From assembly GCA_019326865.1 (NCBI GenBank), contig GCA_019326865.1_4101.1: 64,000 nucleotides of DNA. One strand, given 5' to 3'. Under the pieces are notes generated by a model. That model ran no database searches, was not told the origin of the DNA, and saw only the letters and a list, made by a program, of their open reading frames with translations. Origin of the DNA: a phage. Shown in pieces: positions 3,166-59,803 of the stretch (its first letter is position 1; every line of letters starts with the position of its first letter). A program made the position numbers and the translations under genes.

Positions 3166-4905
3166 ATGAGTTGGAAACGACATATGACAGTGGGAAGGTC
3201 AAAGCTATCGACTATCCCAAATCAGTCCAATAATAGCAATAAATCAACAGGAACAAAAACCAATTTTGCTTCCTATCTTCCAGTTGTATATAATGGATTG
3301 GCAAACCGTACTGAACGTTATAGTCAGTATGAGCAAATGGACCAAGACCCTGAAATTAGAACTGCATTGAATATCATTGCTGACTTTTGTACTCAAAGTA
3401 CTGAAGATTATGGTTTACCATATAAAATAAAATACAAAGATGATATTGGAGATACTGAAGTAACAACGATTGAAGATCGTTTAGATGCATGGACTGAACA
3501 AAATGATTTTAAAACACGAATGTATGAGATTGTACGTGGTCTTTTGAAATATGGGGACCAGTTTTTTATCCGAGATCCAGAAACATTTGATTGGTATTGG
3601 GTGAGTCCAAAAAACGTCGAACAAGTATTTGTTAATGAAGCAACTGGGAAAACACCAGTAATTTATTACATACGTGATGTATCATTAAACTTAAAAGATA
3701 AAGTTTATAGTAATCTACAAGTTGGATTCGATAAAACCGCTTATCCTGGTGCTATTCCTACAACAATGGGTGGTGGTGGTTCTGTCGCTGCTGGCGGTGC
3801 ATCTGGATTCACTAGTCAAGGTAATACTGCTGACCCTTTCAGCACTAATGGTCAATTAGATGTTATTCCTGTTGGTGCAGAACACGTAATCCATTTGACG
3901 CTAAATACTGGACAAGATGGAGTATGGCCTTTTGGTACTAGTATACTTGAGGATGTATTCAAAGTTTATAAACAAAAAGAACTTCTAGAAGATAGTATCA
4001 TAATTTATCGTGTACAACGTGCTCCAGAACGTCGTGTTTTTAAAATCGATGTTGGTGATATGCAAGCACATCAGGCAATGGCTTATGTGGAAAGATTTAA
4101 AAACGAAATTCATCAGCGTAGAATACCTTCAAACAAAGGTGGAAGTACTTCTTTAATGGATGCAGCATATAATCCTTTAAGTATATTAGAAGATTACTTT
4201 TTCCCACAAACTTCTGAAGGTCGTGGTTCGGATGTTCAAACTTTACCAGGTGGTGATAACTTAGGGCAAATTGATGACTTACGCTACTTCAATAATAAAT
4301 TGATACGTGGTCTTCAAATACCAGCTTCCTATCTACCACAAGGTCCAGATGATGGTGGTGTTTCATTATTTGGTGATGGTGCAACACAAGCTATGGCAAG
4401 TGAATTACGATTCAATAATCAATGTATGCGTTATCAGCGTTTAGTTGCGAAACATTTTGATGCTGAATTCAAAAGATTTATGGTAAAAAATGGATATAAT
4501 ATTAGTACTTCATCATTTGAAGTCATTATGAATCCACCAATTAACTTAGCTTCTTATCGTAAAGCTGAATTGGATGCTAAATTAATTAATACATATCTAC
4601 CTCTTAATGATTTACCTTATATGGCTAAACAAACAATTCTTGAGAAAATGGGCTTTTCTAAAGCAGATATTGTTAAGAATGAACAAATGTGGTTACAAGA
4701 GAATCCACAAGATGGTTCTCAACCTTCTAGTGGTGAAGAAGATTCTGCTGGATTACAGTCTGTTGGTATTGATGCACCAAATGACCCAGGTATGGATCTT
4801 GGTATTGACGGTGATGGTAATTTAGAAAGTGCTGATTCCGAATATCAAGAACAACAAAGTGGAAGTGATGGTTTCAATCCTAATAATTTAGGCAATTCTT
4901 TTTAA
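3166..4905 (+). CDS. gp20: portal vertex protein (T4 gp20-like)
   Basis: Segment IIIYRVQRAPERRVFKIDVGDMQAHQAMAYVERFKN matches T4 gp20 [32 protein letters not shown]; size and position before the core/protease/scaffold/MCP genes. Confidence 0.85.
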   Translation: MSWKRHMTVGRSKLSTIPNQSNNSNKSTGTKTNFASYLPVVYNGLANRTERYSQYEQMDQDPEIRTALNIIADFCTQSTEDYGLPYKIKYKDDIGDTEVTTIEDRLDAWTEQNDFKTRMYEIVRGLLKYGDQFFIRDPETFDWYWVSPKNVEQVFVNEATGKTPVIYYIRDVSLNLKDKVYSNLQVGFDKTAYPGAIPTTMGGGGSVAAGGASGFTSQGNTADPFSTNGQLDVIPVGAEHVIHLTLNTGQDGVWPFGTSILEDVFKVYKQKELLEDSIIIYRVQRAPERRVFKIDVGDMQAHQAMAYVERFKNEIHQRRIPSNKGGSTSLMDAAYNPLSILEDYFFPQTSEGRGSDVQTLPGGDNLGQIDDLRYFNNKLIRGLQIPASYLPQGPDDGGVSLFGDGATQAMASELRFNNQCMRYQRLVAKHFDAEFKRFMVKNGYNISTSSFEVIMNPPINLASYRKAELDAKLINTYLPLNDLPYMAKQTILEKMGFSKADIVKNEQMWLQENPQDGSQPSSGEEDSAGLQSVGIDAPNDPGMDLGIDGDGNLESADSEYQEQQSGSDGFNPNNLGNSF

Positions 4906-5295: not shown

Positions 5296-5307
5296 ATGGA
5301 GGATATA

Positions 5308-6138
5308 ATGGCGAATTTAAAACTACTACAAGAAGCAATTGCGGCGTTTGCAAATGGTGAACAAGATATTGCTGATAAAAAAATGCGTAAGTATTTTGTT
5401 GAGCAAGCACAAGAAATTAACAAGAAGCTAGAAGAAAGCATGGAAGATGAAGACGAGGAAGTTGAAGTCGAAGATGAAGAACAGCTTGACGAAGATTTTG
5501 ATGTGCAACCAGATGCTGGTCTAAATGCTGAAATCGAATACACACTTGGTGAAGAAGATGAAAGTGCAGAAGATGAAGTTGAGTTTTCTGCTGATGCTGA
5601 TGGTGACGGTGAAGATGATGTTGATGTGGAAGTGAAGGCAGATGCTGATGTTCCTTCTGAAGATCAATGGGAATCAATTCAGGATGCTTTCCGTGGTTTA
5701 CAACAAATGTTTGATGAAATTGGTGATGGCGAAGTTGACCTAGATTCCGATGAAGAAGTTGAAGATAGTGAAGAAGAAGTCGGTGTTGACGGGGAAGACG
5801 AATTTGCTGACGTTGAATTCGGTGATGAAAAAATTGGTGAATCCTTCAAACTAGAAAAAGTTGCACCTGTCGACAAGAAAGAAAAAGCTGGTACTCATAC
5901 TAAATCCCCAGTAGCACCTGAAGCAAAATCCCCAGTAGCAGGAGCAGAACCAGTTAAATTTGCAAAGAAAACTGATCAAGCACCACTAGTAGACCTAGAT
6001 GATAAATCTGTTCTACCAAAAGATAACCTTGATCTTGGTAAAAATGCTCGCGGTGAAATGAAAGATGTAAAAGCACCAAAAACTACTGCATCAAATTCTA
6101 AATCACCACTAAGTAAAGCACAACCTAAAGTAAAATAA
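5308..6138 (+). CDS. highly acidic protein (possible prohead core or internal protein, gp68 position)
   Basis: RBS ggagga 5 nt upstream of ATG 5308; long D/E runs (EDEDEEVEVEDEEQ, DSDEEVEDSEEEV); lies between portal and protease. Confidence 0.5.
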   Translation: MANLKLLQEAIAAFANGEQDIADKKMRKYFVEQAQEINKKLEESMEDEDEEVEVEDEEQLDEDFDVQPDAGLNAEIEYTLGEEDESAEDEVEFSADADGDGEDDVDVEVKADADVPSEDQWESIQDAFRGLQQMFDEIGDGEVDLDSDEEVEDSEEEVGVDGEDEFADVEFGDEKIGESFKLEKVAPVDKKEKAGTHTKSPVAPEAKSPVAGAEPVKFAKKTDQAPLVDLDDKSVLPKDNLDLGKNARGEMKDVKAPKTTASNSKSPLSKAQPKVK

Positions 6139-9387: not shown

Positions 9388-10983
9388 GTGTTAGAAGAAA
9401 TCAAGAAGTTTTTATCAGAGAAAAATGTTCGTGGTGTTAAATCTGCTCTGCAAGCAAAATCTGTATACATTGAATTCCTGCGAGAGATGTTTGGTGATAT
9501 CGATCTTAATGAAATGATTTATATGGTATTGAATGATATTACTTCAGTGCCGAATGCTGAATGTGGTGACAAAGCTAAGTTTATAAGTATTACCGAAGGA
9601 TATTCTTACAAGTGCAATAAACCATTTCAAGGAAAAGGAAAATGCCTTATCTGTTGCTCCGCAGTTGCTAGGAAACGTAAAGAAACTTACAAAGAAAAAA
9701 CTGGTTATGATAACCCGGCACAGAATCCAGAAATTCAAAAGAAAATAGGGTATACCAATGAACAACGTTATGGCACTCGTATTGCTCAACAATCTGAACA
9801 AGTAAAGCAGAAATCAATAGAAACTAATATCAAAAAGTATGGCGTTGTTCATCCATCACAGTTGGAAAGTAATAAACAGCAACGTTTACAAACTGTACAA
9901 GAAAAGTATGGTATCAATAATGTATGGCAACTTAATAAAGGTCTTAGTGCACGTTATGAACAGTTTAAAACACGATTTGAACAGGATGGTAAATTTACTC
10001 TTTTAAGTGATGAATCCCATTATGATAATAGCAATGACGCAACTCATGCAATCATGCACTGGAAATGTAATGAATGTGGTAATGAGTTTGATAAAGTTGC
10101 TCTTTGCTTACGCTGCCCTAAGTGTGAACCATATTCATCCAGTACTGAAGAAGTTAATCTTTATAATTACATTACCTCTATCTATAGTGGTGTTGTTATT
10201 CAAAACAGCCGCAACATAATCAAAGGTAATGAAATTGATATTTTCATCCCAGAACTGAAACTTGGTATTGAGTTCAATGGTGAGTACTGGCATCGTGATG
10301 AAGTTCGTGGTAAAGACTATCATCAATCCAAATACTTCAAAATGAAGGAAGCAGGATACAAACTTATCACTATCTATAGTAATGAATGGTCAAATAAAAC
10401 TGAAATTGTTAAGAATCGTTTGAAAAGTTTGATTAGTGTGGATAGTAAAATCTATGCTCGTAAGTGTGAAGTTAGATTGGTTGTACATGAAGAATGTGAT
10501 AAATTTTTGTATGAACATCATATTCAAGGACCATGCCAATCATCAATCAAACTTGGACTTTACTATAATGATGATTTGGTTGCTTTGATGACATTTGGTG
10601 CACCACGATTTAACAAGCAGTATGAATATGAATTACTGCGTTATTGTTCTAAAGGAACAGTTGTTGGGGGTGCATCGAAACTGTTAAAACATTTTGAACG
10701 TATGTATCTTCCTAAATCTCTTCTTTCATACGCCGATATGAACTGGAGTACTGGTAATTTGTATGAAAAAATTGGTTTTACTTTAGAAGAAGTAACTCAA
10801 CCTGGTTATTTTTACTATGATAGAAAAAACGAAGTTGTTTATTCTCGCCATCAATGCCAAAAACAAAAACTTATTAAAAAATATAATTTTGATAGTTCTA
10901 TGACAGAGAAGGAAATGACAAAAGAATTAGGATACTTTAGAATCTATGATTGTGGTAACTTAGTTTATAAAAAGATTTACTAA
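9388..10983 (+). CDS. multi-domain putative nuclease, paralog 1 of 3 (Cys clusters, YGV repeats, Vsr/DUF559-like PD-(D/E)xK core, conserved C-terminal domain)
   Basis: GTG start with RBS ggaga 5 nt upstream; N-terminus VLEEIKKFLSEKN aligns with paralog 3 MIIDELKKFLKSKN; core motif IDIFIPELKLGIEFNGEYWH; C-terminal domain shared with 30327..31931 and 44978..46729. Confidence 0.7.
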   Translation: MLEEIKKFLSEKNVRGVKSALQAKSVYIEFLREMFGDIDLNEMIYMVLNDITSVPNAECGDKAKFISITEGYSYKCNKPFQGKGKCLICCSAVARKRKETYKEKTGYDNPAQNPEIQKKIGYTNEQRYGTRIAQQSEQVKQKSIETNIKKYGVVHPSQLESNKQQRLQTVQEKYGINNVWQLNKGLSARYEQFKTRFEQDGKFTLLSDESHYDNSNDATHAIMHWKCNECGNEFDKVALCLRCPKCEPYSSSTEEVNLYNYITSIYSGVVIQNSRNIIKGNEIDIFIPELKLGIEFNGEYWHRDEVRGKDYHQSKYFKMKEAGYKLITIYSNEWSNKTEIVKNRLKSLISVDSKIYARKCEVRLVVHEECDKFLYEHHIQGPCQSSIKLGLYYNDDLVALMTFGAPRFNKQYEYELLRYCSKGTVVGGASKLLKHFERMYLPKSLLSYADMNWSTGNLYEKIGFTLEEVTQPGYFYYDRKNEVVYSRHQCQKQKLIKKYNFDSSMTEKEMTKELGYFRIYDCGNLVYKKIY

Positions 10984-44981: not shown

Positions 44982-46729
44982 TTATAGATGAATTGAAGAA
45001 ATTCTTAAAAAGCAAAAACAAAAAAACATGGGTTAAGTTGGTAAGCAATAATGAAGTGTATTTTAAATATGTTCGTGAATTATTCCCAACTAAACCCATG
45101 AATGAAGCATTGTATCTTATAATGAACGATATGGTATGTGCACCATCTGCCCCATGTGGCTCTGAATGTAAATTTATTAATGGTTCATATGATAAGTATT
45201 GTTCTAAGCCAACAAAACCAAACAAAAATCGTGATAATGGTTTTTGTGTAGTATGCAATGAGCATTGGAAGAACGCCAAACTCAAAAATACTAAACAAAA
45301 ATGCCTTGATGCTTATGGAGTCGAATATCATTGGCAAAGAAATGATGTGAAGGACAAAATAAAAAGTACTAATATGAAACGATATGGCGTTGAGCACAAT
45401 TCGCATATCGAACATGTTCTTGAAAAAAGAAAGGAAACCTTCATTAAAAGATATGGTGTTGAATCACCTTTAGCATCTGTTGAAATTCGTGATAAGATAA
45501 AAGCAACAAACATTGAAAAATATGGTGTTGAAAATTATGGAAGTACTGATGAATGTATAGAAAAACGAAATAAAACAATGATGGATTTATATGGTGTTAA
45601 TAATGCACAACATGTAACGAAATTTTTAAATGAATCAAAGGTTACGAAAGCTAAAATTAGGTATGATAAAATTTTATCTATTATTAACCCTTCATATAAA
45701 GAACTTTTTGAATATGATGACTTGATAGATTCAACTAATGAAAGTAAACTTCCGTATTATTGTGAAATACACAAAGGGCTGTTTTATAGTAATTATAAAT
45801 ATGGTATAGTTTGTAGTGTTTGTAATCCACCCGTGTATAGTTCCATACAAAATGAAATAAAGAATTTTGTATCAACATTGACTGAATGTGACATTATTAT
45901 GAATGATCGAAGTAATGGGTATGAATATGATATATACATCCCTGAACTCCAGATAGCAATAGAAGTTAATGGAATGTATTGGCACAAAAGTGATATGGTT
46001 GATAAGTATTATCATAGGACAAAAACAATAAATTCGATTGAACGTGGAATTAGATTGATACATATATTTGAAGATGAATGGTACAGTAAACAGGAAATTA
46101 TTAAAAATAGATTAATGAACGTTTTTCAATGTTCTAGTAAGATTTATGCCAGAAAATGTATTGTTAAAAAAATTAACACAAATATTTGTTATGATTTCTT
46201 GAACACTAATCACATACAAGGATATACTAAAACTGGAATAAACTATGGTTTGTTTTATAAACAAGAACTGATTGCAGTAATGACGTTCAGTAAAAGTCGA
46301 TATGATAAAAAATTTGAATATGAGCTAATACGATATTGCTCACGTGGAACGGTTGTTGGTGGGGCTGGTAAATTATTGTCTGCATTTGAGCGTGATTACA
46401 AACCATTGTCGTTGATGAGCTACGCAGACTTGAATTGGGGTTCTGGGCAGTTATACATATCTCTTAATTTTGAAAATTTGGGATATACCGAACCCAAATA
46501 TTTTTATTATGATCCAAAAACAAAACAGCGTTTTTCTAGACAAAAATTTAGAAAACATAAATTGATTGAAATGGGCCACGACTCATCTAAAACTGAAGAA
46601 GAGATATGCTTAGGTGAAATTGGATTGTATAAAATATACGATTCTGGCAATTGCAAATTTGCTAAATATTATTACAACATAAACATTACAGGAGATATTG
46701 AAAAATGTCCAAATCGTACAAAAAACTAA
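44978..46729 (+). CDS. multi-domain putative nuclease, paralog 3 of 3
   Basis: TTG start overlapping the upstream stop, RBS gaaggg 8 nt upstream; YGV repeats (RYGVEHNSH, RYGVESPLA, KYGVENYGS, LYGVNNAQH); core motif YDIYIPELQIAIEVNGMYWH; C-terminal domain conserved with paralogs 1 and 2. Confidence 0.7.
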   Translation: MIIDELKKFLKSKNKKTWVKLVSNNEVYFKYVRELFPTKPMNEALYLIMNDMVCAPSAPCGSECKFINGSYDKYCSKPTKPNKNRDNGFCVVCNEHWKNAKLKNTKQKCLDAYGVEYHWQRNDVKDKIKSTNMKRYGVEHNSHIEHVLEKRKETFIKRYGVESPLASVEIRDKIKATNIEKYGVENYGSTDECIEKRNKTMMDLYGVNNAQHVTKFLNESKVTKAKIRYDKILSIINPSYKELFEYDDLIDSTNESKLPYYCEIHKGLFYSNYKYGIVCSVCNPPVYSSIQNEIKNFVSTLTECDIIMNDRSNGYEYDIYIPELQIAIEVNGMYWHKSDMVDKYYHRTKTINSIERGIRLIHIFEDEWYSKQEIIKNRLMNVFQCSSKIYARKCIVKKINTNICYDFLNTNHIQGYTKTGINYGLFYKQELIAVMTFSKSRYDKKFEYELIRYCSRGTVVGGAGKLLSAFERDYKPLSLMSYADLNWGSGQLYISLNFENLGYTEPKYFYYDPKTKQRFSRQKFRKHKLIEMGHDSSKTEEEICLGEIGLYKIYDSGNCKFAKYYYNINITGDIEKCPNRTKN

Positions 46730-51992: not shown

Positions 51993-52021
51993 AAAATCCC
52001 GCTTCGGCGGGATTATTTTTA
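51993..52021 (+). terminator. rho-independent terminator
   Basis: aatcccgc-ttcg-gcgggatt hairpin followed by attttt. Confidence 0.8.
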
Positions 52022-52034
52022 ACGGAGTGATATA

Positions 52035-52808
52035 ATGAAAGTTGATTATTTTAAACCAATTAATATTGGTTTCATTGAGGAATTTTGGGATGATTTGGAC
52101 ATGGATATGATTGTTCGCCATCAAAAGCTTCCAGACGATTTCATTAAGAAGCATTTTGATAAAATGAACCCTAACATGTTGGCTCGTTATCAAACTATGT
52201 CAATTGATTTCTTAAAAGAAAAGTGGGAATGGTTCGATAAGAACGTTCTGGCAACATATGTTGTCATGCCACTGGAACTCATTAAAGAAAAGTGGGATGA
52301 TTTTAAAGATAACTGTCTTGGAACAGTTGCAAAATACCAAAAAATGTCATTGGATTTTATACAAGAAAAATGGGATGACTTTGTAGAGTTTAAAGATGGT
52401 GTAATGTCAGAAATCTCTCGTTACCAAAAATTAACTCTGGATTTCATTCAAGATAAGTGGGAATATATAGATAAGAATTATATTTCTTATTATCAAACTT
52501 TAACTGTTGATTTCATCAAAGATAACTTAACAGAACTGAACATTGCTGCGGTATCTGCATTCCAAATTATTTCTGATGATGTTCGAAATCTTATGGGATT
52601 GGCTGCACCAGCAGCAACCATTACCGGAAACCAAATATTATCTCTAGACCCATGTGTGGATGGTATGGCACGATATAACGCCCATACTCCTGATAACACA
52701 ACAGTACTGACATGGAATGAATTATTACAAAAACACTTGGGTACACAGGACGGAATTCGTGATATCCATTGGTTGTCTTATAAACTAGGACATAACATCA
52801 ATACATAA
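52035..52808 (+). CDS. tandem-repeat protein (about seven ~23-29-aa repeats, consensus (R/K)YQxLSLDFIxEKWDxFDKNxL)
   Basis: Repeats RHQKLPDDFIKKHFDKMNPNMLA / RYQTMSIDFLKEKWEWFDKNVLA / KYQKMSLDFIQEKWDDFVEF... / RYQKLTLDFIQDKWEYIDKNYIS / YYQTLTVDFIKDNLTELNIAAVS. Confidence 0.6.
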   Translation: MKVDYFKPINIGFIEEFWDDLDMDMIVRHQKLPDDFIKKHFDKMNPNMLARYQTMSIDFLKEKWEWFDKNVLATYVVMPLELIKEKWDDFKDNCLGTVAKYQKMSLDFIQEKWDDFVEFKDGVMSEISRYQKLTLDFIQDKWEYIDKNYISYYQTLTVDFIKDNLTELNIAAVSAFQIISDDVRNLMGLAAPAATITGNQILSLDPCVDGMARYNAHTPDNTTVLTWNELLQKHLGTQDGIRDIHWLSYKLGHNINT

Positions 52809-52827
52809 TATATAAGGAAATATATAA

Positions 52828-53952
52828 ATGTCCGTTTTTAAAATTAACGAAAAATCACACTTAGAAAAAAATATGTTTTTTGATGAAAGTGTTGACATTC
52901 AACGATTTGAAAGTGTAAAATATTCAGCACTAGAGAAACTAACTGAACAACAAAAAAGTTTCTTCTGGACCCCAGGAGAAGTTGATGTATCTAAAGATAA
53001 AATTGATTTTGCCAACCTTAATGATTCAGAGAAGCACATTTTTACCTCTAACTTGAAACGTCAAATTCTTCTTGATTCTGTACAAGGTCGTGGTCCAAAC
53101 CTAATGCTACTACCATATGCATCACTACCTGAATTAGAGAACTTTATTGAGACATGGGCATTCTTTGAAGGTGCGATTCATAGTAAATCATATACTCATA
53201 TTATTCGTAACATTTACCCTAATCCATCTGAAGTGTTTGATACTATGTTGGACATTCCAGAAATCACAGATTGTGCGGCTGATGTGTCTAAGTATTATGA
53301 TGAACTGGATGAGCTAGGTACATGGTATAAAGTACTGGGTGAAGGAACTCACAATGTCAATGGTAAAACTATTGTTGTTGATATGTACGAACTTAAAAAG
53401 AAAATGTGGTTGTGTCTGAATAGTATTAACATCCTTGAGGGTGTGCGTTTTTACGCTAGTTTTGCCTGTTCGTGGGCCTACGCCGAAAACAAGCTTATGG
53501 AAGGTAATGCCAAAATTATTCGTCTAATTTGTCGTGATGAAAATTTACACTTAGCGGCAACACAAATGATTCTTCGCCTACTTAAGAAAGAAGATCTAGA
53601 CTTTGCAAAAATTGCAGAAGAGTGTTATGATGAAGTACTGGAAATGTTCATGTCTGCAATCCGTCAAGAAGAAGCTTGGGCAGATTTCCTCTTTAAAGAT
53701 GGTTCAATCATTGGACTAAATGCAGAAATCCTAAAACAATATGTTCGCTGGATTGGTTCTAAGCGTATGTCAGCACTAGGAATTAAATGTCCATATACTG
53801 TATCTAAGAGTAACCCACTACCTTGGACTGAGCATTGGGTTAGTGGTGGTTCAGTACAAGTTGCACCGCAAGAAACTGAAATAAGTTCTTACATCATTGG
53901 TGGTATTGTTAATGATATCCAAGGAGATACATTCACGCCATTCAAACTATAA
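52828..53952 (+). CDS. nrdB: ribonucleotide reductase class I beta subunit
   Basis: Ferritin-like layout with FFWTPGEVDVSKD and ILEGVRFYASFACSWAYAE. Confidence 0.85.
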   Translation: MSVFKINEKSHLEKNMFFDESVDIQRFESVKYSALEKLTEQQKSFFWTPGEVDVSKDKIDFANLNDSEKHIFTSNLKRQILLDSVQGRGPNLMLLPYASLPELENFIETWAFFEGAIHSKSYTHIIRNIYPNPSEVFDTMLDIPEITDCAADVSKYYDELDELGTWYKVLGEGTHNVNGKTIVVDMYELKKKMWLCLNSINILEGVRFYASFACSWAYAENKLMEGNAKIIRLICRDENLHLAATQMILRLLKKEDLDFAKIAEECYDEVLEMFMSAIRQEEAWADFLFKDGSIIGLNAEILKQYVRWIGSKRMSALGIKCPYTVSKSNPLPWTEHWVSGGSVQVAPQETEISSYIIGGIVNDIQGDTFTPFKL

Positions 53953-53963
53953 ATTAAAACTAA

Positions 53964-53990
53964 AAAGGGATTCATAGAATCCCTTTTCTT
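53964..53990 (+). terminator. rho-independent terminator
   Basis: agggattc-ata-gaatccct hairpin followed by tttctt. Confidence 0.75.
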
Positions 53991-57129: not shown

Positions 57130-58432
<1,303 letters not shown>

Positions 58433-58459: not shown

Positions 58460-59803
58460 ATGATGAGTAAAATTAAGCTTACGGATAAGCAACAAGAAAT
58501 CTTTGATGATTTTATAGATCGTGTTTACAACTATGCAGGTAAGACAATTTCAGTTTTATCTGCACCAGCAGGAACTGGAAAAACATTCACTACCGCTGAG
58601 ATTGTAAAAGCATTATGTAAAAACTATAATATTGCAGTAACTTCACCTACACATAAAGCCAATGCGGTTATTCGCAATATGCTAATTAACAATGCTGGTC
58701 TTACTAAGGAAGACGCACAAGTTAGTACTATACATTCTTTTTTAGGATTGAAATTAGTATATGAAAAGAATCGTCAAGTACTAAAACATGACCCACAGAG
58801 TAAAGTCAGCAACACGAACGTTGATATTCTTATTGTTGATGAGTGTAGTATGATTTCAGATGAACTATTTCAGCATATACAGGACCAATTGTGGCGTGTC
58901 CGTCGAGCAGTTTTATTCATTGGTGATCGTTGTCAGTTACCACCAGTTGAGTCGGAAGGTACGATGGGGGAGACTAAATTGTCCCCTACATTTGATGTGC
59001 CTGTTCAGTATGAATTAACTGAGGTTTTACGCCAAGCATTGGATAATCCTATTCTGGCAATTGCAACTGCAATTCGTGAGTGTATTGGGACTAGTAAAAA
59101 TCCATTTGATATTATGCACCAAACCCATGGGTTGAGCACTATTACACCTATAGATGATGAAGATTTATTTCTAAATGTTTATCGTGAATTTATAATGGAA
59201 AATAAGGGGTCATCTAAAAAAATATTTGATTTTGTAAATGAAAATAAAATTCTAGCATACACAAATTATAGAGTTAATTTGGCTAATATTTACATTAGAA
59301 GTCAATTATTTGAAGTTCCAGATGAATTTACTAAAGGTGAACCAATTGTTTTTGAAAGTATAACTGAGAATAGCCCTTATGTAGTACAACAAATAATTCA
59401 ATGTCCTGAAGTAAAACGTGAAAGTTTTATGGGTATTGATTGTTGGCAATTCCGTTTACCAAATGGTAGTTATATTTTGGGTGTAGGACCAGAGACAAGA
59501 ATTGCGATGGACGAAAAACTTGATAAACTTGTTAAGGATATTGAGAAAAAAGAAATAAACCCATTGACAAAGAAACCATATATGTGGCAGGATTATTATG
59601 TTATAAAGAATAAATTACATATCATTAATTATCCGTATGCAACAACTGTTCATAAATCGCAAGGAAGTACTTTTGACAACATTTGGTTTGACACTGATTT
59701 TATTGAACGCATAGGAACTAATGATACGAAGTGTAGAATTTTATACACAGCAATGACCCGTCCTAGATATAGTGTTATTCTGAGACAGAACGCCCGATTC
59801 TAA
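58460..59803 (+). CDS. dda: Dda-like SF1B DNA helicase
   Basis: Walker A APAGTGKT; motif II ILIVDECSMI; C-terminal TVHKSQGSTF. Confidence 0.75.
   Translation: MMSKIKLTDKQQEIFDDFIDRVYNYAGKTISVLSAPAGTGKTFTTAEIVKALCKNYNIAVTSPTHKANAVIRNMLINNAGLTKEDAQVSTIHSFLGLKLVYEKNRQVLKHDPQSKVSNTNVDILIVDECSMISDELFQHIQDQLWRVRRAVLFIGDRCQLPPVESEGTMGETKLSPTFDVPVQYELTEVLRQALDNPILAIATAIRECIGTSKNPFDIMHQTHGLSTITPIDDEDLFLNVYREFIMENKGSSKKIFDFVNENKILAYTNYRVNLANIYIRSQLFEVPDEFTKGEPIVFESITENSPYVVQQIIQCPEVKRESFMGIDCWQFRLPNGSYILGVGPETRIAMDEKLDKLVKDIEKKEINPLTKKPYMWQDYYVIKNKLHIINYPYATTVHKSQGSTFDNIWFDTDFIERIGTNDTKCRILYTAMTRPRYSVILRQNARF

Follow-up and report, generated by a model that had tools for sequence, protein, structure and literature searches.

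What does a gene for a tandem-repeat protein do between the genes for the two subunits of a ribonucleotide reductase (RNR)? The question is raised by a stretch of phage DNA of 64,000 nucleotides (nt; NCBI GenBank assembly GCA_019326865.1, contig GCA_019326865.1_4101.1; the whole stretch is called the window here), in which a preliminary description made from the letters alone had noticed an open reading frame (ORF) for 257 amino acids (aa) between nrdA and nrdB. The ORF was confirmed at this place. DNA similarity places the window among the Rak2-like jumbo coliphages (genus Asteriusvirus), with Escherichia phage UE-S1 as its nearest record (95% identical over the region). As it is not T4-like, phage T4, used for comparison in that description, was a misplaced reference. 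What is new here is a slightly aberrant member of a viral repeat family that already bears a name, the 'tryptophan repeat gene family'; the variable slot that it occupies is of a familiar kind. We lean, with due caution, towards the reading that its product is a cytoplasmic, non-enzymatic protein-binding adaptor, which would be co-expressed with NrdB and would be accessory and dispensable.

The ORF is evidently a real gene under purifying selection, as it has a ribosome-binding site (RBS), a low ratio of non-synonymous to synonymous substitution rates (dN/dS; 0.05-0.14 in every pairwise comparison of six orthologs) and orthologs of one length, i.e. eleven distinct ones from GenBank phages and IMG/VR contigs, which are 62-94% identical, consist of exactly 257 codons each and share 122 invariant positions. 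The protein matches PHROG 3532 at an E value of 8e-33 and is acidic (isoelectric point, pI, 4.85; net charge -13), and the GC content of the gene equals the window mean. The window contains no paralog of the protein, the best tblastn match having an E value of 0.075.

Most of the protein is a repeat array spanning residues 7-188. Its best off-diagonal Smith-Waterman self-alignment scores 247 as compared to 32.9 +/- 5.7 in 100 shuffles (z = 37.7), and 23 aa is the sole positive offset in an ungapped self-comparison; this custom alignment was used in place of a blastp self-comparison, which returned the main diagonal alone. Seven full units (7-29, 30-52, 53-75, 76-101, 102-130, 131-153 and 154-176, i.e. 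23, 23, 23, 26, 29, 23 and 23 aa) are followed by a partial eighth unit of 12 aa (177-188), and the unit consensus reads Q-x-L-[ST]-x-D-F-I-x-[ED]-K-W-[DE]-x-[FI]-D-K-N-x-[IL]-[SA]-x-Y, with a Trp at unit position 12 (E-K-W) in five of the seven full units. The two irregular units keep their length across the eleven orthologs. Thus, the about seven repeats and, roughly, the consensus given in the preliminary description hold, but a period of about 84 nt does not, since a base period of 23 aa corresponds to 69 nt (78 and 87 nt in the two long units). The protein self-alignment detects the period of 23, whereas Tandem Repeats Finder reported no array in the DNA of the ORF, so that the repeat is seen at protein level only. 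Finally, 'built from repeats' applies to residues 7-188, whereas the last 69 residues form a separate domain. The ortholog of phage EJP2 (locus L007, 4001-4765) is annotated from an internal start at 4067, the full-length frame opening at 4001, and is the sole ortholog with a deletion, which removes three residues from the 29-aa unit; the metagenomic proteins P0003 and P0004 have N-terminal extensions, probably due to mis-called starts.

The earlier guess of an alpha-solenoid fared well. Based on an alignment of 36 rows comprising orthologs, distant repeat proteins and homologs of the C-terminal domain, AlphaFold2 yielded a model with a predicted local distance difference test score (pLDDT) of 91.4 and a predicted template modelling score (pTM) of 0.81, while an alignment of five orthologs only gave an unusable model (pLDDT 58). 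Each 23-residue unit is predicted to form two short helices, resulting in an all-helical solenoid, and the C-terminal domain is modelled as four helices with a small beta-bridge. The model supports an alpha-solenoid as the fold class, and a Foldseek search with it against the PDB returned nothing at E < 0.6. Generic solenoids, e.g. PBS-lyase HEAT-like proteins (YibA, 1oyz; alphaRep, 4xl5) or HEAT/ARM repeats, resemble the protein in architecture only, and this may also hold for the leucine-rich repeat variant (LRV; PDB 1lrv, 24-residue units of an alpha and a 3-10 helix): Pfam at E <= 10 gave no LRV, PBS-lyase HEAT-like or HEAT/ARM match, and HEAT/ARM and PBS-lyase HEAT-like units comprise about 30-47 residues. 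Weak matches in BFVD were obtained with a set of ~260-aa proteins of Rak2-like phages (A0A1L2CVN3 of CBB and A0A2C9CY59 of fHe-Yen9-04, 264 aa each, and K4FBA1 of GAP32, 254 aa), which resemble the model at E values of 2e-4 to 7e-3 and 12-16% identity and may represent another solenoid family, unrelated in sequence; GAP32 encodes such a protein though it has no tryptophan-repeat ortholog.

Conservation is highest in the C-terminal domain (55% invariant positions among orthologs vs 44% in the repeats), which carries the motif I-x4-[DN]PC-x-[DE]G-x2-R[YF] ... [TS]WN-x-[LF][LI]E[KR][HY] ... D[IV]-x-WL. Sequence and profile searches gave no relative of this domain in Pfam or PDB, but short metagenomic repeat proteins of 97-219 aa end in it; P0055, P0069, P0094, P0110, P0117, P0243 and P0265-P0273 share it. 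A MAFFT alignment hinted at a degenerate capping repeat, but hhalign lent this no support (probability 0.1). C207, H217, H234 and H245 were also considered as a zinc site; since the histidines are not retained in distant members of the domain outside the orthologs, a metal site is unlikely. At the locus of P0055 (L010, Logan SRR19753085 contig) an Acb2/Tad1-hairpin gene, i.e. a member of an anti-CBASS/Thoeris sponge family, lies ~3.4 kb away (5471-5827) on a phage-like contig whose other genes are of no recognised kind.

The preliminary description did not recognise the repeat, which belongs to the tryptophan repeat gene family. The top matches of a Foldseek search against BFVD are entomopoxvirus (EPV) proteins of that name (Mythimna separata EPV, AMV029, MSV027, MSV205), followed by pithovirus proteins and gp558-563 of Bacillus phage G; the named members, including phage G gp563, match at E values of 1e-10 to 1e-9 with a probability of 1.00, TM scores of 0.47-0.63 and 19-26% identity. 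By tblastn, matches were obtained in phage G, in Listeria phage LPJP1 and with BpSp gp045, whose annotation bears the name of the family, and the GenBank note on the CBB ortholog, CBB_304, reads 'similar to gp559 [Bacillus phage G]'. An exhaustive profile search with the orthologs over 50%-identity cluster representatives matched 1405 of them, 184 at E <= 1e-10, the common unit being QxLSEDFIREFxDKVDWxxISxY, and only one cluster holds the full-length ortholog. Judged by profiles and predicted fold, the window protein belongs to a divergent subfamily within this viral family, with which it shares tandem 23-residue units of the pattern Q-x-L-S/T-x-D/E-F-I ... I-S-x-Y and a predicted two-helix solenoid that superposes in the BFVD search. 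It differs from the family in insertions of 3 and 6 residues in two units, fixed across orthologs, in a C-terminal domain of its own, and in copy number: it is present once, while paralog arrays of the family occur in phage G (2 or more places by tblastn), BpSp (6) and LPJP1 (11). Such arrays are also known from entomopoxviruses.

The family has neither a Pfam model nor a solved structure, and its name is used in annotations and genome papers without a function. Searches of Pfam, NCBIfam, PADLOC and PDB by sequence or profile, with the whole protein and with the C-terminal domain, gave no meaningful match: weak matches to Peptidase_S11, Perilipin_2, DUF3310 and HEC-01B were far below threshold and were dismissed, as were precomputed 'PF08004/DUF1699' tags on relatives, which were not reproduced at E <= 1. 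In the literature, no paper treats this gene or assigns a function to the family, and CBB_304 is passed over in the genome paper on CBB. Relatives also occur in metagenome-assembled genomes of Bacteroidales, Clostridia and archaea as well as in one Zunongwangia isolate, and further distant ones lie on phage-like contigs amid small unknown genes.

How is the gene expressed? According to the preliminary description it is bracketed by strong terminators, but only one hairpin lies upstream, the spacer to nrdB is unfolded and the next terminator lies past nrdB (Table 1). The upstream hairpin has a predicted RNA folding energy of -15.4 kcal/mol (z -3.65) and is annotated as a terminator in UE-S1. 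Its core, ATCCCG...CGGGAT, directly follows the nrdA stop codon in ph0011, fHe-Yen9-04, pEa_SNUABM_12, Kaldavass, Hallingskeid, CBB and GAP32, regardless of whether the slot between nrdA and nrdB is filled or empty, and its persistence across several genera, whatever lies 3' of it, points to a conserved attenuator between the two RNR genes. The 19 nt that separate the ORF from nrdB contain neither a hairpin nor a promoter (fold of 52795-52840: -2.7 kcal/mol, z 0.17), and in CBB, fHe-Yen9-04 and Kaldavass the stop codon TAA of the ORF is even part of the nrdB RBS, TAAGGA. With a lone upstream terminator and the next one after nrdB, the ORF and nrdB form one bracketed unit. Thus, as no terminator or promoter separates them and the stop codon abuts the RBS, the ORF is probably co-transcribed with nrdB, and translational coupling to nrdB is possible.

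Table 1. Features of the nrdA-nrdB region in the window.
Feature	Position	Strand	Basis or remark
nrdA, class Ia ribonucleotide reductase large subunit, 772 aa	49669..51987	+	left border of the slot; RNR alpha subunit in the annotation of all related phage records
Intrinsic-terminator-like hairpin AATCCCGC-TTCG-GCGGGATT, then ATTTTT	51995..52014	+	terminator scan; between nrdA and the ORF
GGAG ribosome-binding site	52024..52027	+	7 nt 5' of the ATG of the repeat gene; counterpart annotated as RBS in UE-S1
Tryptophan-repeat-family protein gene, 257 aa	52035..52808 (stop codon 52806-52808)	+	ORF, dN/dS, orthologs, PHROG 3532
Repeat array, residues 7-188	52053..52598	+	self-alignment, pairs of short helices in the model, profile matches
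C-terminal non-repeat domain, residues 189-257 (69 aa)	52599..52805	+	motif, conservation, profile comparison
nrdB ribosome-binding site AAGGA	52814..52818	+	5 nt past the stop codon of the ORF
nrdB, RNR small subunit, 374 aa	52828..53952	+	right border of the slot; annotations of relatives
Hairpin terminator 3' of nrdB	53962..53988		scan; -13.0 kcal/mol, z -2.35; annotated terminator in UE-S1

The check for orthologs in related phages that had been proposed was informative. Our sample comprised 72 Rak2-like records that match the nrdA-nrdB junction; 19 of them carry the repeat gene, the slot is empty in about 50 and two GAP32 records have an endonuclease gene instead. Carriers include UE-S1, Ecwhy_1, BF17, Turkey3, WPEC3/5, EC.P1, fEgEco12, JNE01 and EJP2 as well as Yersinia phages fHe-Yen9-03/04, Pectobacterium phage CBB, Xanthomonas phages XaC1/XbC2 and Erwinia phage Kaldavass, and empty slots are found, e.g., in 121Q, PBECO4, phAPEC6, ph0011, Erwinia pEa_SNUABM phages, Serratia phage BF, Hallingskeid and Klebsiella phages. 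At E <= 1e-3 tblastn matched 23 records in total, at a single place in each matching Rak2-like record, and found no copy anywhere in the empty-slot phages. In IMG/VR all seven of seven loci lie between nrdA and nrdB, two of them being fHe-Yen9-04 and CBB and five additional uncultivated contigs. A 786-bp indel with clean boundaries separates the window phage from its relatives of the 121Q/PBECO4 type, and the polymorphism occurs inside genera, i.e. in Eneladusvirus (fHe-Yen9-04 vs pEa_SNUABM_12), Mimasvirus (CBB vs GAP32) and Asteriusvirus. In this sense, the term 'inserted' of the preliminary description is upheld.

The simplest history would be that of an ancient resident that was repeatedly lost, because the orthologs (63-68% aa identity) have diverged roughly in step with NrdA (72-78%, to other genera) and NrdB (75-82%); cassette exchange through recombination between the conserved flanks is a possible alternative. 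Between the window and Ecwhy_1 the synonymous divergence (dS) of the repeat gene is 1.75, about twice that of the adjacent nrdB (0.85), and this excess could reflect either codon-usage constraint on nrdB or a separate recombination history of the cassette. The slot of GAP32 (NC_019401, locus L013, 21148-21885) encodes the 245-aa GAP32_299, which is annotated as endonuclease and matches MUG113/T5orf172 (GIY-YIG-like) at an E value of 6.5e-5. As the congener CBB has the repeat gene there, the same site hosts alternative cassettes. In contrast to the earlier statement that nrdA and nrdB of T4 are neighbours without such a gene, mobE, which encodes an HNH homing endonuclease, and nrdB.1 lie there. 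Thus, mobE/nrdB.1 of T4, GAP32_299 and the window gene have in common a slot just 5' of nrdB that varies between close relatives, but the occupants in T4 and GAP32 are nucleases or a small ORF, whereas the window protein is a predicted repeat scaffold without a nuclease domain (no HNH, GIY-YIG/T5orf172, LAGLIDADG or PD-(D/E)XK domain in Pfam). By these genome comparisons, the nrdA-nrdB slot is a permissive, often remodelled cassette site in Rak2-like phages. In fHe-Yen9-04 (locus L004, 4784-6951; also L039, 4284-6448) nrdB itself is split into residues 1-236 and 237-374, and the ~1 kb inside it carries a 245-aa ORF (g299) with no Pfam match; this insert beside the repeat gene looks like an intron or a mobile insertion.

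Based on these findings we suggest how the protein might act. Seven and a half two-helix repeats of 23 residues would form a rigid acidic scaffold, capped by the small conserved C-terminal domain. It would most likely be made from the same transcript as NrdB, as the ORF lies 3' of the nrdA terminator/attenuator and abuts the nrdB RBS, and during the DNA-metabolism phase of infection, and it would act by stoichiometric binding of another protein, i.e. as adaptor or recognition module, rather than by catalysis. As an accessory gene it would bring enough benefit to be kept under purifying selection in its carriers, while neither RNR function nor phage viability would require it. The adaptor function is favoured because nothing catalytic was detected, because the fold class is used for protein binding, and because of domain fusions in relatives. 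In P0044 the tryptophan repeats are followed by a C-terminal RING-H2 finger, and other family members have variable end domains, e.g. DUF7666. In E3 ligases the substrate-recognition domain occupies the place that the repeats take in fusions of this kind. In AMV254 an F-box is fused to tryptophan repeats (PMC7728225). Viral E3-ligase adaptors (poxvirus ankyrin/F-box proteins, AMV254, P0044) combine ubiquitin-ligase modules with repeats as recognition domain, and the RING and F-box fusions support, by analogy, a partner-binding role for the repeat array. The phage protein, having neither F-box nor RING, could share the binding function with them, but not the pathway; to our knowledge, bacteria have no ubiquitin system. 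As for its location, the CBB genome paper analysed the virion proteome, and the annotation calls the neighbours CBB_302, 308 and 310 structural proteins but CBB_304 only hypothetical, so that the repeat protein would, by annotation, not be virion-associated in CBB.

Several points weigh against an adaptor that is dispensable and has nothing to do with RNR. The RING and F-box relatives are eukaryote-virus proteins with ~25% identity, so that the transfer of the recognition module is an analogy, and the Trp residue is located at unit position 12 (E-K-W...D-K-N) instead of position 17 as in the family (E-F-K...V-D-W, the D-W opening the second helix), where the window protein has Lys, Met or Pro; this may be regarded as subfamily variation of the core, the repeat still being present. 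The protein-binding role, like co-transcription with nrdB, is what we infer, and dispensability is deduced from natural absence in relatives. Above all, the ortholog lies between nrdA and nrdB in every carrier whose context was read, and such strict synteny in at least four or five genera, with carriers in Asteriusvirus, Eneladusvirus and Mimasvirus as well as among phages of Xanthomonas and Erwinia, together with a stop codon that touches or overlaps the nrdB RBS and no intervening terminator, would fit a functional link to RNR. The protein might thus be an accessory subunit of RNR or dNTP synthesis that binds NrdA and/or NrdB, or tethers RNR as in the dNTP-synthetase complex of T4, tuning assembly, localisation or allostery of the enzyme and being translationally coupled to nrdB for stoichiometry. 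Genes for nucleotide metabolism and replication (frd, RNase H, helicase; assigned from sequence look alone) in its surroundings agree with this. We nevertheless consider such a role rather unlikely, since the tie to RNR implied in the preliminary description comes down to position: about 70% of the relatives have no copy anywhere, among them ph0011, whose NrdB is 98.9% identical to that of the window, so that RNR works without the gene and with no compensating change; the GAP32 slot holds an unrelated endonuclease; and 29 loci that harbour distant family members have neither nrdA nor nrdB within 4-8 kb. YfaE, a ferredoxin, and NrdI, a flavodoxin, are RNR maintenance factors encoded next to nrdAB, but the window protein has a predicted helical solenoid fold, only one Cys (C207) is invariant among the orthologs, no YfaE-type ferredoxin or NrdI-type flavodoxin appeared in Pfam at E <= 10, and NCBIfam gave no match. 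A more specific version, in which the solenoid would be a third component of the jumbo-phage class Ia RNR, translationally coupled to NrdB, with its C-terminal domain docking the enzyme onto a nucleotide-synthesis or replication protein, is in our view distinctly unlikely; if true, it would be the first function assigned in this pan-viral family.

The binding partner might also be a host protein, e.g. a defence or nucleotide-depleting enzyme, which the repeat protein would sequester or redirect as a host-takeover or counter-defence effector. This would be a special case of the adaptor model, in which host-specific selection would cause the patchy distribution, and it is in line with the presence/absence polymorphism in each of several genera, with the paralog arrays of LPJP1, BpSp and phage G, which are typical of arms-race families, with the small unknown accessory genes around distant relatives, one of which lies beside an Acb2/Tad1-hairpin gene, and with the acidity of the protein. 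However, neither PADLOC nor other known defence-related models match it, and a single-copy gene that evolves slowly (dN/dS about 0.1, no indels) does not show a diversifying pattern, making this unlikely. That the gene is a functionless passenger, i.e. selfish or hitch-hiking DNA in a homing-endonuclease hotspot kept by gene conversion, appears highly improbable to us: although endonuclease genes occupy the same slot in GAP32 and T4, an inserted ORF interrupts nrdB of fHe-Yen9-04 and the indel has clean boundaries, the gene is under strong purifying selection, keeps its exact length over 62-94% identity, encodes a confidently folding structure with no nuclease motif or domain, and has the composition of the genome. 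Thus, we return to the adaptor made with NrdB as the reading that we favour.

The tryptophan repeat family is common to jumbo phages, entomopoxviruses and giant viruses, and the Rak2-like ortholog may serve as a tractable entry to it, as it is single-copy, has a defined operon position and comes from phages that grow on E. coli; since natural isogenic-like variants without the gene exist, a phenotype ought to be within reach of measurement. Unless a binding partner is found, the practical value is modest. Beyond this family, the nrdA-nrdB junction emerges as a recurrent cassette slot, which is empty or filled with a repeat gene or an endonuclease gene, in phages very distant from T4.

Some further genes of the window deserve mention. 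Downstream of the RNR genes, three ORFs at 57486-58007 (173 aa), 57986-58432 (148 aa; 22-nt overlap) and 58460-59803 (447 aa) resemble, judged from their sequences alone, dihydrofolate reductase, RNase H and a RecD/Dda-like helicase, and if so, the repeat gene lies inside a nucleotide-metabolism and replication module. Two paralogous ORFs on the plus strand, at 9487-10983 and 45098-46729 (498 and 543 aa), have ~23-aa repeats of their own with a 'KYGV' motif; they match DUF7487 at E values of 1e-12 to 1e-19, contain a PD-(D/E)XK-like REase_MTES_1575 region below the Pfam threshold and are probably free-standing homing-endonuclease-like genes. Finally, an ORF at 5296-6138 (plus strand) encodes an acidic, Asp/Glu-rich low-complexity protein of 280 aa that is internally repetitive (self-alignment score 125).

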